Origin: Patescibacteria group bacterium
Lineage (GTDB): Bacteria > Patescibacteriota > Patescibacteriia > JBHPGJ01
Direction of reading: 5' to 3'
DNA: 64,000 nt
Assembly (NCBI GenBank): GCA_042570545.1
Contig: JBHPGJ010000003.1
Location: 8,214-72,213, forward strand
This document shows, piece by piece, positions 54,392 through 60,775 of the stretch. The notes under the pieces are model-generated. The model saw only the letters and a program-made list of their open reading frames with translations. It was not told where the DNA came from and searched no databases. Position 1 is the first letter of the stretch; each line of letters opens with the position of its first letter. A program made the position numbers and the translations under genes.

Positions 54392-55108
54392 TTATTTTTT
54401 AGTAACTTTCTTAACTGCTTTAACTTTCTTAACCGTCTTTTTGGTGGTAATTTTAACTGCTGGTTTTGGTGAAATCTTTATTTTATTAAAGGTGTTTTTT
54501 ATAACATCAAGAGATGGTTTTGGCAAGAGAAGATAATTGTGATTAATAACATCGACCACATTTAGACTATCAGCTAAAATAGTTTTAACCTTTTTCAAAT
54601 TATTTGTTGCCCGGACCATCTTTACGTCTGCTTTAGGTAAGATTGTCAGTATTGAACGTTTCTCAATCGGCAATTTATCAATAATATTATTAAAACTTTT
54701 TGTTTTAGCTTCTGCTAGATCTAATTTATCCAAGACTATAACTTTGTTATTACCGGCCTTGTCTGACAGTGCCATAGCCAAGGCTTTTTGCTTTACTTTT
54801 TTGTTAATATTTTTTGAAAAATTTGTTACATTTCGCGGCCCAAATGTTTTACCGCCACCTTTCCACAATGGTGAGCGTATTGAGCCATGTCGGGCGCGTC
54901 CCGTACCTTTTTGTCGCCAGGGTTTACGTCCGCCACCACGTACTTCACTTCTGGTTTTTACATGTGCTAACGGTTGCCGATTATTTGCTTGCTGGCTAAC
55001 AACAGCTAATTTTACTACCTCTTTTTTGATATCAGCTTCAAAAATACTTGGTAAATTAGTTTCGCCAATTTTATCTCCCTGTTGGTTGTAAACTGTTACT
55101 TTTATCAT
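54392..55108 (-). CDS. rplD: 50S ribosomal protein L4 (Lys-rich C-terminal extension)
   Basis: 238 aa, with the L4 core and tail KITTKKTVKKVKAVKKVTKK. Confidence 0.88.
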   Translation of the reverse strand: MIKVTVYNQQGDKIGETNLPSIFEADIKKEVVKLAVVSQQANNRQPLAHVKTRSEVRGGGRKPWRQKGTGRARHGSIRSPLWKGGGKTFGPRNVTNFSKNINKKVKQKALAMALSDKAGNNKVIVLDKLDLAEAKTKSFNNIIDKLPIEKRSILTILPKADVKMVRATNNLKKVKTILADSLNVVDVINHNYLLLPKPSLDVIKNTFNKIKISPKPAVKITTKKTVKKVKAVKKVTKK

Positions 55109-55824
55109 TATTTTTTAACCTTTGTATCAGTTTTAGGAGCGTCTTTTTTATTATCAGATACTGGCTTTGGGTCAATTTCTTTTTCCGTCGTCATTTTAGC
55201 TGCTAATTCCATATCACCAGGTCCCTTAATTAATAATAGGCCATTTCGCGGTCCAGGTACGGCGCCTTTTATGTAAATTAGATTTTTTTCTTCGTCAACT
55301 TTAGCAACAGACAATCCGTGTATTGATGATTGACTGGCACCAAATTGACCAGGATTTTTTTTACCTTTAAACACATGTGCTGGTCCAGTAGCGCCACTCG
55401 ATCCAGGCATACGGAGCTGATCTTTTGTACCATGACTCGCCGGTGCACCATGGAAACCATGTCGCTTAACTACTCCAGTAAAACCTCGTCCTTTAGTTGT
55501 CCCAGTGACCTGTACGCTGTCAGTTGGCTGAAAATTAGCTACGCTGATTACTTGGCCAATTTTATATTTTGATACATCATCAACTCTAAACTCCCTTAAT
55601 TTACGACTTGGCTTACGCCCCTTCAAAATGCCAGTTAGTGGTTTGCTTAATTTTTTTCTTTCACCAGCACCGCCAATCTGAACAGCGTTATAACCGTCTT
55701 TGTCCTTGGTCTTGACTGCGGTTACTTCGCAGGGAAGAGCAGTCACAGCAGTAACCGGGACGACAGTACCGTCATCATTAAACAACCTTGTCATTTCCTT
55801 TTTTGTACCGATAATGAATTTCAT
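55108..55824 (-). CDS. rplC: 50S ribosomal protein L3 (C-terminal extension)
   Basis: 238 aa. MKFIIGTKKEMTRLF...GKGFTGVVKRHGF. Confidence 0.92.
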   Translation of the reverse strand: MKFIIGTKKEMTRLFNDDGTVVPVTAVTALPCEVTAVKTKDKDGYNAVQIGGAGERKKLSKPLTGILKGRKPSRKLREFRVDDVSKYKIGQVISVANFQPTDSVQVTGTTKGRGFTGVVKRHGFHGAPASHGTKDQLRMPGSSGATGPAHVFKGKKNPGQFGASQSSIHGLSVAKVDEEKNLIYIKGAVPGPRNGLLLIKGPGDMELAAKMTTEKEIDPKPVSDNKKDAPKTDTKVKK

Positions 55825-55835
55825 ATATTTATCTC

Positions 55836-55951
55836 AAAAACCGATGAGCCGGGAACTTACCACATTAGCACATCGGTTTTATAAACCTTGCTACTGGTGG
55901 CAAATTGTTATCTGTAGATTAACTGCTGTTCCCGGGTATTGTCATCTACAG
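55836..55951 (-). promoter_or_regulatory. Structured intergenic element between rpsJ and rplC: two stem-loops with mutually complementary loop sequences, and a weak terminator-like configuration
   Basis: Hairpin A is ctgtagat...atctacag (55912-55951) with loop gttcccggg. Hairpin B is aaaaccgatg...catcggtttt (55837-55880) with loop gccgggaac. The loops are exact reverse complements of each other. On the transcribed (minus) strand, hairpin B is followed by uuuuugag. Confidence 0.35.
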
Positions 55952-55975
55952 AACCGATCGCCTAATATTTACTTT

Positions 55976-56323
55976 TTACATTTTAATTTCTATGTCCACA
56001 CCGGCTGGTAAACTCAAGTTCATCAATGAATCAACTGTCTTGGCGGTGGGATTCAATATATCGATCAATCTTTTATGAATCCGCATCTCATACTGCTCAC
56101 GTGAGTCTTTATGAACGAAAGACGCGCGTTGAACGGTATATTTATTCTTTTCCGTTGGCAAAGGCACTGGACCACGGATAGTAGCACCGCTACTAACCGC
56201 TGTTTCCATAATAGTGCGAGTGGATTGATCTATTATTTTATGATCAAAGGCTCGAATTTTAATACGTATCCGTTGCTGTCCTTCCTCAAGCTCTGGAGTA
56301 GTTGATTTTTTTTTCTGTACCAT
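55976..56323 (-). CDS. rpsJ: 30S ribosomal protein S10
   Basis: 115 aa. [17 protein letters not shown]...RGPVPLPT. Confidence 0.9.
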
Positions 56324-56360
56324 GATGATTGAATGAACGAGCCTTAGTTATAATGATTAA

Positions 56361-57545
56361 TTACTTGCTTATTTTTGTTACTACGCCAGCACCAACAGTT
56401 TTACCACCCTCACGAAGAGCAAAGCGTTGCTTCTCTTCCAGAGCTACTGCTTTAGCTAGTTTAACTTTCACCGATAGAGTATCACCAGGCATAACCATTT
56501 CCGTACCTTCGGGCAATTCTACAGCACCGGTAACGTCAGTGGTACGAATATAAAACTGAGGTTTGTAACCTTTAAAGAATGGGGTGTGGCGTCCACCTTC
56601 TTCTTTGGTAAGCACATATACTTCGGCTTCAAATTCAGTGTGAGGCGTTACTGCCCCTGGTTTAGCAATTACTTGCCCACGCTCTACTTCTTCCTTCTTA
56701 GTGCCACGGAGTAACAAGCCAGCATTATCTCCGGCTCGACCTTCATCCAATTCTTTATTAAACATCTCGACTCCGGTAACAACAGTTTTTTGAGTATCGC
56801 GCAATCCGACTAATTCTACTTCTTCATTTACTTTAACAATTCCTCTTTCAATCCTACCGGTAACGACTGTTCCGCGACCCTCAATTGAGAATACGTCCTC
56901 TACCGGCATTAAGAAATCTTTATCAACTGGTCGTTTTGGTTCAGGAATGTATTCATCAATCTTATCCATCAATTCGGTGATTGCTTTCTTTGATTCCTCG
57001 TCTCCTTCAAGCGCCTTGAGCGCTGAGCCCTTGATGATGGGAACTTCGTCCCCTGGAAATTCATACTTTTTAAGTAAATCACGAATTTCTACCTCGACCA
57101 GATCAATCAGTTCTTTGTCGTCTACCTGATCAGTTTTGTTTAAAAATACTACGATAGCCGGGACACCTACCTGACGAGCAAGTAGAATATGCTCGCGGGT
57201 TTGAGGCATCGGACCATCAGCAGCGGACACGACAAGGATTGCGCCGTCCATTTGGGCCGCGCCGGTTATCATATTTTTTACATAGTCTGCGTGCCCGGGA
57301 CAATCAACGTGAGCATAGTGTCGCTTTGCCGTTTCGTACTCAACGTGGGCGGTAGCGATAGTAATACCTCGTTCTTTTTCTTCTGGGGCGCTATCAATCT
57401 CTTCAACGGTTTTGCTCTGAGCAGTATTGCCTGATTCAGCTAGAATTTTAAGTATAGCCGCTGTTAACGTGGTTTTGCCATGGTCTACGTGACCAATAGT
57501 ACCAATGTTAACGTGTGGTTTAGATCGATCAAATTTTTCTGCCAT
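56361..57545 (-). CDS. tuf: Elongation factor Tu
   Basis: 394 aa. [18 protein letters not shown] and NKTD G-motifs. Confidence 0.96.
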
Positions 57546-57739
57546 TTTCTTATTAATATTTAATTATTATTAATCTAAATTTAAGTTTAGGTTCTGGTAA
57601 AAATATAAACTTTTTTCAATAAATGCAATCTGGAGTATAGCAGGAGACCTCAATATTTGCAAGATTTTGCTAAAGTTGGTAAATATCTTATGGCGAGGTA
57701 ATAATTCATTCTCATATATTTGCTAACCCTAGCCAATTA

Positions 57740-59842
57740 CTAGCTTTTTACCTTTTCTTTGCCGCTTTCGCCAATAATTTCTTCAAGAATATTTTTAGGA
57801 ACTATTGAAAAATGAGAAAATTCCATAGAATAAGATCCTCGACCCTGAGTTAAAGAGCGTATGGTTGTAGAATAACCAAACATACTGGCCAAAGGCACTT
57901 CAGCATCAATTACTTTTATCTGGCCACGATCTTTCATTTCGTTAATAATTGATCGCTTGGAATTAAGATCACCCATGACATCACCCATAAATTGTTCCGT
58001 AGTTATTACTTCCACTTTCATTATTGGTTCTAATAATACTGGTGTACCCTTCTTAACCGCTGACTTGAAGGCCATAGAACCGGCAATTTTAAAAGCTTCT
58101 TCTGAAGAATCAACTTCGTGAAATGATCCGTCATATACCGTCACCTTCACATCAATAACCGGATAGCCGGCAATAACACCGTTGTCCATGGCAGCTTGTA
58201 TGCCCTTATTGATAGCGGGAATGTATTCCTTGGGAATAGCTCCACCCTTAATCTTATCTTCAAACTCATAACCACTGCCTCTTTCTTTGGGCTCAACTCG
58301 AAGCCAACAATGTCCGTATTGTCCACGGCCACCGCTTTGTCGAATATATTTGCCTTCTGCTTCGGCCACTTTACGAATCGTTTCTTTGTAGGCCACTTGT
58401 GGTTTACCAACATTAGCTTCGACTTTGAATTCTCTTTTTAATCGATCAACAATTATTTCTAAATGCAGCTCGCCCATACCAGAAATCAAAGTCTGGCCAG
58501 TTTCTTCATCGGTATTAACCTTAAAGGTCGGATCCTCTTCGGTAAGGTTACCAAGAGCCAGGCCGAGCTTTTCTTGATCAGCCTTGGTCTTTGGTTCAAT
58601 AGCCACCGAGATTACCGGATCTGGAAATTCGATCGATTCAAGAAGTATAAGATTATCTTCATCACAAAGAGTATTACCGGTAGAAGTCTTCTTTAATCCC
58701 ACGGCGGCAGCAATGTCACCAGCCGAAACAGATTTTACTTCTTCACGGTGATTTGCATGTAGTTTTACTATTCGGCCAATCCGCTCTTTGGTCTCGGTAC
58801 TACTATTATAAACGTATGAACCGGCCTCTACTGTACCGGAATACACTCTAAAGAAGGCCAACTTACCAACATATGGATCAGCAGCAATTTTAAATGCTAG
58901 AGCAGCAAAGGATGCTTGGGGATCCGTTGGCCGTTCTAGCTCTTTATCAGTCTTAGGATCAATGCCTTTTACCGGCGGTACATCAAGCGGTGATGGTAAA
59001 TAATCATTTACGGCATCCATTAAAAATTGAATGCCCTTATTCTTTAAGGCTGAACCGGTAAGTACTGGTACGAACTCGTTAGCTATACAGGCTTTACGCA
59101 TTGTCTTTTTTAATTCCTCTATAGTTAGTTCTTGGCCGTCAATATATTTGTTTAATAACTCTTCGTCATTTTCAGCAACGGCCTCCATCAGCTTATGGCG
59201 ATATTCTTTTACTTTTTCTTTCATATCGTCAGGGATCGGTTTTTCCACCCACTCTTTACCCATTTCATCAGTAAATTCATAAGCTTTTTGTTCAACTAAA
59301 TCAATCACTCCGGTAAATGTTTCGGCGGCACCGATGGGTAATTGCACAGGATGAGCTTTTTTGGTTAACCGATCATGAATGCTATCTAAATCAAAATAAA
59401 AATCGGCACCAGTTCGGTCCATCTTATTGATAAAGCAAATTCGTGGAACATCGAACTTATCAGCTTGGTGCCAGACTGTTTCCGACTGTGGTTCTACTCC
59501 AGCTACACCGTCAAATATGACCACACCACCATCAAGGACACGCAAACTGCGTTGAACTTCGACCGTAAAGTCAATATGACCCGGAGTATCAATAATATTT
59601 ATTCGATGATCTTTCCAAAAACAAGTAGTAGCGGCAGCCGTAATGGTGATTCCCCGCTCCTGCTCTTGCTCCATCCAATCCATTTCTGCTTCACCCTCAT
59701 GAACCTCACCAATTTTATGTTTTTTACCAGTATAATAAAGTACCCGCTCGGTCACGGTGGTTTTACCGGCGTCAATATGCGCAATGATACCAATATTTCT
59801 GGTCTTTTCTAAATTGAAATCTAGTGTATTTTCTTCGCTCAT
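57740..59842 (-). CDS. fusA: Elongation factor G
   Basis: 700 aa. [17 protein letters not shown] and NKMD G-motifs, plus domains II-V. Confidence 0.96.
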
Positions 59843-59888
59843 ATATAAAGTATAAAAAAGTTCCCGGGGACCGGGAGACGATTAGTCA

Positions 59889-60353
59889 TTAGGCAAAGTG
59901 GGCAAAGGCCCTATTTGATTCAGCCATTCGGTGCACGTCTTCTCGTTTTTTCATTGCTTCGCCTTCTTTTTTCTTGGCAGCCATAATTTCATTAGCTAGT
60001 TTTTGCGACATTGATCCGCCTTTCTTATTTCTGGCAGCACCAATCAACCAGCGCAAGGCTAGTGTAGTTTTTCGTTCACCACGTACTTCTACCGGTACTT
60101 GATAATTTGCACCACCGATACGGCGAGATTTAACTTCCAGGATTGGAGTAACGTTTTTGATAGCCTCTTCAAATATCTCAACTGGATTATTCTTATTATT
60201 GGCAGCCGCTTTATCTAAGGCATCATACACTATTCTTTGAGCCAGGCTTTTTTTGCCCCGGCGCATAACCTGATTGATAAACTTTTGTATCAACAAGGAA
60301 TTATATTTTGGGTCGGCAACTGGAATTCTTTTTTGAGCTGATTTACCGCGCAT
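59889..60353 (-). CDS. rpsG: 30S ribosomal protein S7
   Basis: 154 aa. Canonical position and S7 motifs. Confidence 0.9.
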   Translation of the reverse strand: MRGKSAQKRIPVADPKYNSLLIQKFINQVMRRGKKSLAQRIVYDALDKAAANNKNNPVEIFEEAIKNVTPILEVKSRRIGGANYQVPVEVRGERKTTLALRWLIGAARNKKGGSMSQKLANEIMAAKKKEGEAMKKREDVHRMAESNRAFAHFA

Positions 60354-60775
60354 TATTTACTCTTCTCCTTTTTAGTACCATAATGCGACCGCCGCTGTTT
60401 CCGCTCGGTCACACCTTGAGTATCGTATACTCCTCGGACAACATGATACCTTACTCCTGGTAGATCTTTTACTCGGCCGCCACGAATCATTACGATTGAG
60501 TGTTCCTGCAAATTATGACCAATGCCGGGAATATAAGCAGTAACTTCCATTCCGTTTGAAAGCCTAACTCTGGCAATTTTTCTTAGTGCTGAGTTTGGTT
60601 TTTTGGGAGTGGTAGTGGTTACTTTGACACACACTCCGCGCTTAAATGGACTGCCCTTAGGCAGCTTAGAACGTTTTCGCTTAACGGCGTTTAGTACTGT
60701 CTCCAAGGCTGGAGTTTTTGACTTACGCTTCTGTGTTCTGCGCCCATTTCTTACTAACTGATTAACTGTTGGCAT
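60353..60775 (-). CDS. rpsL: 30S ribosomal protein S12 (Lys-rich C-terminal extension)
   Basis: 140 aa. [13 protein letters not shown]...[18 protein letters not shown]17-TAATTT promoter lies upstream at about 60838-60866 on the minus strand. Confidence 0.92.

Follow-up and report, generated by a model that had tools for sequence, protein, structure and literature searches.

What does a spacer of 151 nt do between two genes of a ribosomal-protein (r-protein) cluster in which every junction further downstream measures 0-12 nt? The question is raised by a stretch of 64,000 nucleotides from a Patescibacteria group bacterium (GenBank assembly GCA_042570545.1, contig JBHPGJ010000003.1, positions 8,214 to 72,213 of the forward strand), which is called the window below and in whose coordinates all positions are given. 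On its minus strand the spacer separates rpsJ from rplC. An initial annotation, made from the sequence alone, had seen in it an attenuator or r-protein autoregulatory site with two hairpins whose loops are complementary. The first part of that proposal was borne out by a conserved spacer with compensatory changes and by a conserved, mutually exclusive antiterminator pairing. The spacer is therefore read here, with a probability of roughly 0.6, as a cis-acting transcription attenuator in the tuf-rpsJ-rplC... mRNA, which would gate rplC and about 25 tightly packed r-protein and secY genes. On the comparison of sequences it is a real and conserved cis-regulatory RNA of a known kind, apparently undescribed. 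The logic of a terminator/antiterminator switch with a conserved sensor domain is well supported by the alignments; feedback by an r-protein encoded downstream, L4 or L3 first in line, is probable by analogy.

Architecture of the spacer

The spacer (55825-55975, minus strand), delimited by open reading frame (ORF) coordinates and by homologous spacers in the related loci L161-L166, L168 and L172, measured 151 nt, in agreement with the roughly 150 nt annotated initially, and reads AAAGUAAAUAUUAGGCGAUCGGUUCUGUAGAUGACAAUACCCGGGAACAGCAGUUAAUCUACAGAUAACAAUUUGCCACCAGUAGCAAGGUUUAUAAAACCGAUGUGCUAAUGUGGUAAGUUCCCGGCUCAUCGGUUUUUGAGAUAAAUAU-AUG on the transcribed strand. Both annotated hairpins were recovered by RNAfold, with a minimum free energy (MFE) of -38.8 kcal/mol and z = -2.0 against dinucleotide shuffles. 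All features described in this section lie on the minus strand.

The 5' part forms a conserved sensor domain (55895-55967, from the match of the covariance model R1 described below), composed of helix P1a, an internal loop, helix P2 (hairpin A) and the flanks of its loop. Its 5' switching strand, AUUAGGCGAUCGGUU (55952-55966), was recognized from inverted repeats and the conservation of a long-range helix, and has its partner either locally, in P1a, or in the 5' arm of the terminator, giving the antiterminator. In P1a, GGCGA (55958-55962) is paired with UUGCC (55899-55903), the end of the nearly invariant AGAUAACAAUUUGCC (55899-55913); this helix was obtained from the RNAfold MFE structure and from RNAalifold and has two covarying positions (GC/AU and CG/UA). 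Across the internal loop, AUCGGUU // AGAUAACAA, follows P2, a perfect helix of 9 bp between UCUGUAGAU (55944-55952) and AUCUACAGA (55911-55919), identified as an inverted repeat, likewise with two covarying stem positions (UA/CG/GC and AU/GC). Loop A of this hairpin comprises 24 nt (55920-55943) with conserved flanks, GAYAAUAC...UAAUC; its 5' end GACAAUAC (55936-55943) and 3' UUA are conserved, and its variable middle holds CCGGGAAC (55928-55935). Downstream of the domain, MFE structures placed a vestigial helix P3 (ACC...GGU, 55885-55898), which in the window, as in L168, amounts to roughly 3 bp and in most members is a hairpin of 6-10 bp, of unrelated sequences.

The 3' part holds the terminator, hairpin B, whose 5' arm AAAACCGAUG (55871-55880) and 3' arm CAUCGGUUUU (55837-55846) were both found by RNAfold, RNAalifold and covariation; taken as 13-nt arms (55868-55880 / 55837-55849) they are 92% complementary. 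The 3' strand of the antiterminator, AACCGAUGUGCUAAU (55864-55878, from an inverted repeat and helix conservation), overlaps the terminator 5' arm and extends into loop B. This loop, also of 24 nt (55847-55870), holds GUUCCCGG (55849-55856) and GUGGUAA (55857-55863), the latter complementary to UUGCCAC at 55897-55903. The terminator is closed by a U5 tract (55836-55840), 11 nt upstream of the rplC AUG, and the complete stem-loop with its U tract on the sense strand, AAAACCGAUG...CAUCGGUUUUU, spans 55836-55880. The terminator-type tail that had been annotated behind hairpin B on the transcribed strand was thereby recovered (UUUUUGAG, minus strand, 16 nt ahead of the rplC AUG). A simple terminator scan made no call for hairpin B, since its 24-nt loop exceeds that of textbook terminators.

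Relatives and structural conservation

Relatives were collected through L3 of species-representative genomes, of the Joint Genome Institute (JGI) metagenome collection and of a large protein collection, and the contigs of the matches were retrieved. The closest L3 in the first two sources was no nearer than 57-60% identity; a few relatives came from the large protein collection, further L3 lay below about 60% identity, and the window L3 formed a singleton cluster. A homologous spacer at the same junction was present in seven other distinct sequences (L161, identical to L162, and L163, L164, L165, L166, L168 and L172), which belong to rare, distantly related Patescibacteria with L3 proteins 51-66% identical to that of the window. 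The shared consensus of the 5' part is CUGGCGAAUCGGUUCUGYRGAUGAYAAUAC-(variable)-UAAUCYRCAGAUAACAAUUUGCC-(variable hairpin P3), which is continued after P3 by AUAACCGAUGCGCCAG-(variable)-GGCUCAUCGGUUUUU-(about 10 nt)-AUG.

With R1, a covariance model built on the 5' domain, the window and 172 loci were searched. The window was matched at 55895-55967, exclusively on the minus strand, at 76.4 bits (E about 3e-17), and the relatives at 63-87 bits. Apart from the eight distinct members and the L162 duplicate, there was no match in the other ~160 loci, and the element thus belongs to a small, rare clade. Frequent G-U pairs, together with the strand of the model match, place the RNA on the gene strand.

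The comparative alignment for covariation that had been proposed as a check was favourable: the spacer is conserved in relatives, and compensatory changes occur in the terminator stem as well as in hairpin A and the helix that closes it. For P1a, P2 and the terminator taken together, 91.9% of the cells were paired in a seven-sequence alignment and seven pairs were changed on both sides; none of 500 shuffles matched the pairing or the covariation score, and slid partners gave 29-44%. For the 5' domain in the model-based alignment of all eight members (A4) the corresponding values were 94.2% and four pairs, with 28-42% for slid partners. The same three helices were returned by RNAalifold without guidance. 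In the MAFFT alignment the window GGCGA stands one column out of register; A4 leaves the P1a cell counts essentially unchanged. The sensor domain is separable from the expression platform, as L164, L166 and L172 keep the former with a different terminator sequence. Two stretches that are invariant in the alignment, AGAUAAC and GAUGA-AAU, are required by none of the alternative helices, which points to recognition of a ligand.

AT-rich inverted repeats (…TTACTGATTACTAGTTACCAGT…) stand beside the conserved element in two members from one study (L163 788-893; L168 434-530 / 680-803), on both sides in L168 and downstream only in L163, and lengthen the spacers to 266 (L163) and 370 nt (L168). From their sequence they look like a small mobile insertion of the miniature inverted-repeat transposable element (MITE) type. 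Classification of the element itself as a repeat or mobile element was rejected: these repeats only flank it, and the second-best R1 match in the window scored 14.5 bits (E = 1.7).

A conserved alternative pairing

The hairpin A 5' flank (AUUAGGCGAUCGGUU) is complementary to a stretch (AACCGAUGUGCUAAU) that comprises the hairpin B 5' arm and the first part of loop B, over 55947-55966 with 55864-55883; this complementarity, absent from the initial annotation, is more important than that of the loops. Its segment GGCGAUCGGUU has two partners, UUGCC locally in P1a or AACCGAUGUGC, the terminator 5' arm. Because AUCGGUUCUGUAGAU at the 5' end and AUCGGUUUUUGAGAU in the terminator 3' arm form a direct repeat, the two segments compete for one partner. 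In the antiterminator helix (55952-55966 / 55864-55878), 83.5% of the cells were paired over 14 pairs in seven members, with three pairs changed on both sides; the slid control, run on this helix and P2 combined, gave 25-41%. A mutually exclusive pairing that occupies one terminator arm, as in an attenuator, is thus conserved.

Folding energies were compared for full-length and for shortened transcripts. In the full-length RNA of L161, L163, L165 and L168 the combination of P1a, P2, P3 and terminator was favoured over the antiterminator fold by 4-7 kcal/mol, and in L164 the antiterminator fold was itself the MFE structure. When the transcripts were cut just ahead of the terminator 3' arm, the antiterminator state became the MFE structure in L161, L163, L164 and L165, as would be expected if the switch is under kinetic control. 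The cut window transcript used CCGGGAAC/GUUCCCGG and the adjoining UUGCCAC/GUGGUAA instead of the antiterminator; a 15-nt stretch of loop B, GUGGUAAGUUCCCGG, is complementary to two upstream segments. Constrained energies of the terminator and antiterminator states of the window are unreliable, since they are affected by the shifted GGCGA in the MAFFT alignment.

Complementarity of the two loops

The hairpin loops had been annotated as 9-nt perfect reverse complements. They comprise about 24 nt each, and the exact match is 8 nt, CCGGGAAC (55928-55935, loop A) with GUUCCCGG (55849-55856, loop B), the ninth position not being complementary. Taken by itself, this match nominally exceeds chance (p about 0.005-0.02); in the comparison with shuffled loops p was about 0.005 when run length was scored and 0.016 when duplex energy (-16.9 kcal/mol) was scored, and the 8-mer was counted three times in the window against 1.2 expected. 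Matches of differing sequence occurred in L161 (7 nt, AGAUACU/AGUAUCU, p = 0.012) and L164 (6 nt, p = 0.026). Four of the seven aligned members (L168, L163, L165 and L166) had no loop-loop complementarity (p > 0.5 each); among them, L168 has the spacer most similar to that of the window and yet lacks the match, and L163 retains the loop B sequence of L161 and has lost its loop A partner. With loop A scanned against all downstream sequence, the window alone was clearly significant.

Kissing loops therefore failed as a conserved mechanism, and it is the pairing of the hairpin A 5' flank with the hairpin B 5' arm that is conserved in their stead. Judged by its distribution, the loop match is an optional, lineage-specific feature and no defining part of the element. 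Its probable role is to adjust the balance of the switch, either through loop kissing while the RNA is in its terminated fold or, joined to GUGGUAA/UUGCCAC, as an additional long-range antiterminator helix. The folding models suggest that it may act as such a helix or as a pseudoknot, and not by bringing together two hairpins that have already formed.

Genomic setting and transcription units

On the minus strand, rpsL (60353-60775), rpsG (59889-60353), fusA (57740-59842), tuf (56361-57545), rpsJ (55976-56323) and rplC (55108-55824, AUG at 55822-55824) are followed by the S10/spc/secY/adk/map genes, in which every junction measures 0-12 nt by ORF coordinates. Gaps of at least 37 nt occur at tuf-rpsJ (37 nt), rpsG-fusA (46 nt), rpsJ-rplC (151 nt) and fusA-tuf (194 nt). 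The statement that all other r-protein junctions are 0-40 nt long holds from rplC onward and at tuf-rpsJ; in the str part it fails at fusA-tuf and rpsG-fusA.

The nearest good promoter-like site, TTGCAA-17-TATACT with an extended TG (57634-57662, minus strand), lies upstream of tuf in the fusA-tuf gap (57546-57739). A promoter scan found no minus-strand site of this kind in either the spacer or the 3' part of rpsJ. On this arrangement, tuf-rpsJ probably begins a transcription unit of its own that runs on into the attenuator. Since no promoter-like site intervenes and the U tract ends only 11 nt from the AUG, rplC and the essential genes behind it depend on read-through of the hairpin, and for that reason the spacer is read as an attenuator and not as the end of an operon.

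The rpsG-fusA gap (59843-59888, minus strand) contains a terminator-like hairpin of its own at 59862-59876, UCCCGG-UCC-CCGGGA, followed by ACUUUUUU. Its 3' arm and the next two bases make up CCGGGAAC, the 8-mer of loop A, in the third and last copy in the window. From its sequence this hairpin may be a further partial terminator within the str operon.

Some of the proteins encoded downstream carry extensions. L23 (53882-54388, minus strand; 168 aa in total) has a Lys/Asp-rich N-terminal extension of roughly 70 aa, and the L23 proteins of relatives are likewise 144-165 aa long. Lys-rich C-terminal tails were seen on L4 (54392-55108, minus strand), L3 (55108-55824, minus strand), S19 and L22.

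Proposed mechanism

In the proposed attenuator, AUCGGUU would be exposed during transcription and serve as a toehold at which the antiterminator nucleates. The longer antiterminator helix would then displace P1a before the terminator 3' arm is made, so that read-through would be the default. An excess of an r-protein of the downstream operon, with L4 and L3 as the obvious candidates, would be bound by the conserved 5' domain (P1a, internal loop and P2); the bound protein would lock P1a and hide the toehold, the terminator would form, and transcription would stop at the U tract.

Several points weigh against this proposal. A ligand that bound the three-way junction with the antiterminator as its closing helix would make the element an ON switch, and such a polarity does not agree with simple r-protein feedback. 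With its 24-nt loop, the hairpin may terminate only weakly, and the P3 helix and antiterminator extension of the window are weaker than those of its relatives. The element has only eight members, several of them close kin, so the covariation statistics are modest. A colinear-chain test for resemblance to E. coli 23S rRNA was not significant against shuffled 23S (p = 0.11-0.74).

In a window scan of the E. coli 23S rRNA (L170), matches of at least 8 nt clustered at 2431-2510 (P about 0.013), and GAUAACA, CGAUGU and GGCUCAUC are common to the element and 23S positions 2447-2515, a weak cluster signal. Mimicry of the peptidyl-transferase loop is not claimed, colinear chains being no better than in shuffled 23S.

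Alternative explanations

The hairpin could be an unregulated, leaky terminator that lowers transcription after tuf-rpsJ and so provides EF-Tu and S10/NusE in excess over the other r-proteins, with the upstream structure modulating only terminator efficiency or mRNA stability and with no ligand involved. The position of rpsJ, 37 nt from tuf and behind a shared promoter, agrees with this, as do the hairpin and U run found at the rpsJ-rplC junction of many relatives and the terminator-like hairpin of the rpsG-fusA gap, which suggests that stoichiometry in the cluster may be set by partial terminators. Such a terminator, however, has no need for an upstream domain of 75 nt that contains invariant unpaired bases, nor for antiterminator and anti-antiterminator pairings that are conserved through compensatory changes, and this explanation is considered unlikely. 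An ON riboswitch activated by a ligand, in place of r-protein feedback, would make use of the same pairings: the antiterminator helix (P1), P2 and P3 would enclose a three-way junction as the aptamer, with the junction strand AUAACAAUUUGCC, and a small molecule or another growth-state signal that is not a ribosomal protein would stabilize it and turn the operon on. The junction bases are indeed conserved, the P3 hairpin varies in sequence as in many aptamers, and the full-length RNA thermodynamically favours the terminator state, that is, default-off at equilibrium. But P1a covaries, and therefore the local fold is under selection as well; P3 is nearly lost in the window and in L168, scans of Rfam 15 gave no match to any riboswitch family, and the position in an r-protein operon with many unrelated structural variants at the junction is typical of protein-binding r-protein leaders (r-leaders). 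An ON riboswitch thus appears improbable. If true, it would license essentially the entire ribosomal-protein/secY cluster for transcription in a lineage of the Candidate Phyla Radiation (CPR), and the pseudoknot of loops A and B in the window would be a lineage-specific stabilizer of the ON fold.

A loop-loop kissing complex of the two hairpins as the regulatory core has in its favour the 8 nt of perfect complementarity in the window and the nominal matches in L161 and L164; as the match is missing from the four members named above and only the window stood out in the downstream scan, this was rated quite improbable. The remaining readings, an RNase processing site, a BoxA-like NusB/S10 site and attenuation through a mini-ORF, are very improbable even taken jointly. 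The helices of 9-10 bp are too short for RNase III. For BoxA, the conserved UAACAAUUU resembles the 3' part of E. coli rrn boxA. The essential 5' core of boxA is GCUCUUU within a single-stranded, GCUCUUUAACAA-like consensus; only UAACAA(UUU) is shared by the element, the 5' core is missing, and the GGUUCU stretch lies in a covarying base-paired helix, on which grounds a BoxA element was rejected despite the S10/NusE gene immediately upstream. BoxA sites are reported to adjoin rpsJ in some gamma-proteobacteria (PMC5725501). The mini-ORF would start from the AUG in GAUGAYAAU (55943-55945 in the window), which is present in all eight members and opens peptides M-(T/I/K)-I-(P/L/H) of 6-18 aa. This AUG is half buried in P2 and without a Shine-Dalgarno sequence, loop lengths of 23-26 nt shift the frame, and the conserved 3' half is read in three frames; with frames and stops inconsistent across the members, a leader-peptide (ribosome-mediated) attenuator was discarded.

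Wider survey of the rpsJ-rplC junction

The junction was surveyed in the 141 retrieved loci that contain both genes. Among these, the 51 nearest by L3 had a median rpsJ-rplC spacer of 223 nt, with at least 100 nt in 40 of them; a hairpin with a U run terminated 34 of 62 long spacers. As long, structured spacers with terminator-like ends are widespread, regulation at this junction appears to be general in this part of Patescibacteria, with the window element as one clade-specific solution.

By eye, the long spacers form at least two other types of motif, several with a promoter-like site of their own. Variant A (L001, L003, L005, L008, L083-L086, L169 and L173) has the form stem-AAGAU-hairpin-(A)AAAAC-stem, followed by a long perfect hairpin and a U run. 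Variant B (L013, L017, L094, L105, L087, L095, L099, L092, L002, L007 and L089) reads stem-(R)GYAACUC-hairpin-GAAAGU(A/G)CY-stem, usually with a strong hairpin behind it. It resembles, by eye, nt 186-215 of E. coli 23S rRNA, GGGGAACUGAAACAUCUAAGUACCCCGAGG, with AAGUACCCGAG common to this segment and L013, L017 and L105, and is possibly an rRNA-mimic r-leader. In Chloroflexota (L009-L011, L015, L018-L022 and L025) the last ~50 nt before rplC contain a conserved motif, GGGAUGAUGCAGC-(loop)-GCUGACAGUCCYGGGAGGU; since this motif ends in the rplC Shine-Dalgarno sequence, a translational r-leader is suggested.

These variants and the Chloroflexota pre-rplC motif occupy the same junction as the window element, and many consist, as it does, of a structured domain followed by a hairpin and U run. 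In L005 the 5' strand of helix P1, AACAUCAC, can pair either locally or with the terminator arm GUGAUGUU, like the switching strand of the window. The sensor structures differ from that of the window element, being of the form stem-AAGAU-hairpin-AAAAC-stem or stem-AAC-hairpin-GAAAGU-stem, and R1 matched none of the variant A, variant B and Chloroflexota motifs. Promoter-like sites TTGACA-N17-TAAAAT/TAAACT were located within the spacers of L003, L005, L008, L087, L092 and L095; the window type, in contrast to these variant spacers, has no such in-spacer promoter. No Rfam family was found for variants A and B (35 related loci scanned), and six of the Chloroflexota loci had no match in Rfam 15.

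Significance

Patescibacteria (CPR) are mostly uncultured and have reduced genomes, and almost nothing is known of their gene regulation. The element is a candidate regulatory RNA with covariation support at the entry to the main ribosomal-protein operon, in a position after rpsJ that has not been described before. The wider pattern, in which most related Patescibacteria have a long, structured rpsJ-rplC spacer with a terminator at its end and with differing sensor folds, suggests that in this group S10/NusE is made with EF-Tu, while a regulated attenuator separates its expression from that of the remaining S10 operon. As a small RNA of ~130 nt it is suited to in vitro study of r-protein feedback in CPR, and its members provide a seed alignment for a new RNA family.

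Comparison with known systems

Rfam 15 gave no relevant match to the whole window, to 55000-58000, to 55790-56010 (E <= 10) or to the 35 related loci. In cmscan none of its curated r-leader families matched, whether the cutoff was the gathering score or E <= 10, though the presence of the E. coli S10 leader in that release was not confirmed. The searchable literature yielded no description of an rpsJ-rplC attenuator in CPR.

The E. coli S10 leader is comparable in that it controls the same gene block (rplC, rplD, rplW, rplB...) by an attenuator of hairpin and U tract just upstream of the regulated genes. In both, feedback by an r-protein encoded in the operon is the logic to be expected, and in E. 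coli L4 mediates attenuation as well as translational control. The E. coli L4 RNA occurs in Gammaproteobacteria only (PMC3616713). It forms a 5' leader ahead of rpsJ, whereas the window element lies downstream of rpsJ, inside the transcript; no homology in sequence or structure was found between them. The E. coli attenuator acts through a pause stabilized by L4 and NusA, in contrast to the conserved set of terminator, antiterminator and anti-antiterminator in the window element. An assignment to the E. coli type was accordingly rejected, since the element does not lie in a 5' untranslated region upstream of rpsJ, where only 37 nt separate tuf from rpsJ.

Candidate r-protein leaders from comparative analysis include the L4 r-leader of Archaeoglobi and the S10 r-leader of Firmicutes (Eckert & Weinberg 2020, PMC7247131; Yao et al. 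2007, PMC1913097). Both come from phyla different from that of the window. The Archaeoglobi leader stands directly upstream of rplC-rplD-rplW-rplB, like the window element; the Firmicutes S10 leader is unlike it in standing upstream of rpsJ. In the L20/infC and L10/rplJ leaders of Firmicutes, and in riboswitch platforms, a strand of the sensor helix pairs alternatively with the 5' arm of the terminator, and binding of the ligand determines terminator formation. This three-part logic of the Firmicutes r-leader attenuators is common to the window element, with an unrelated sensor fold. The Firmicutes attenuators are located at the 5' end of the transcript, whereas the window element is intercistronic. 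Its type of terminator has an unusually large loop of 21-26 nt, since the antiterminator strand ends within this loop.

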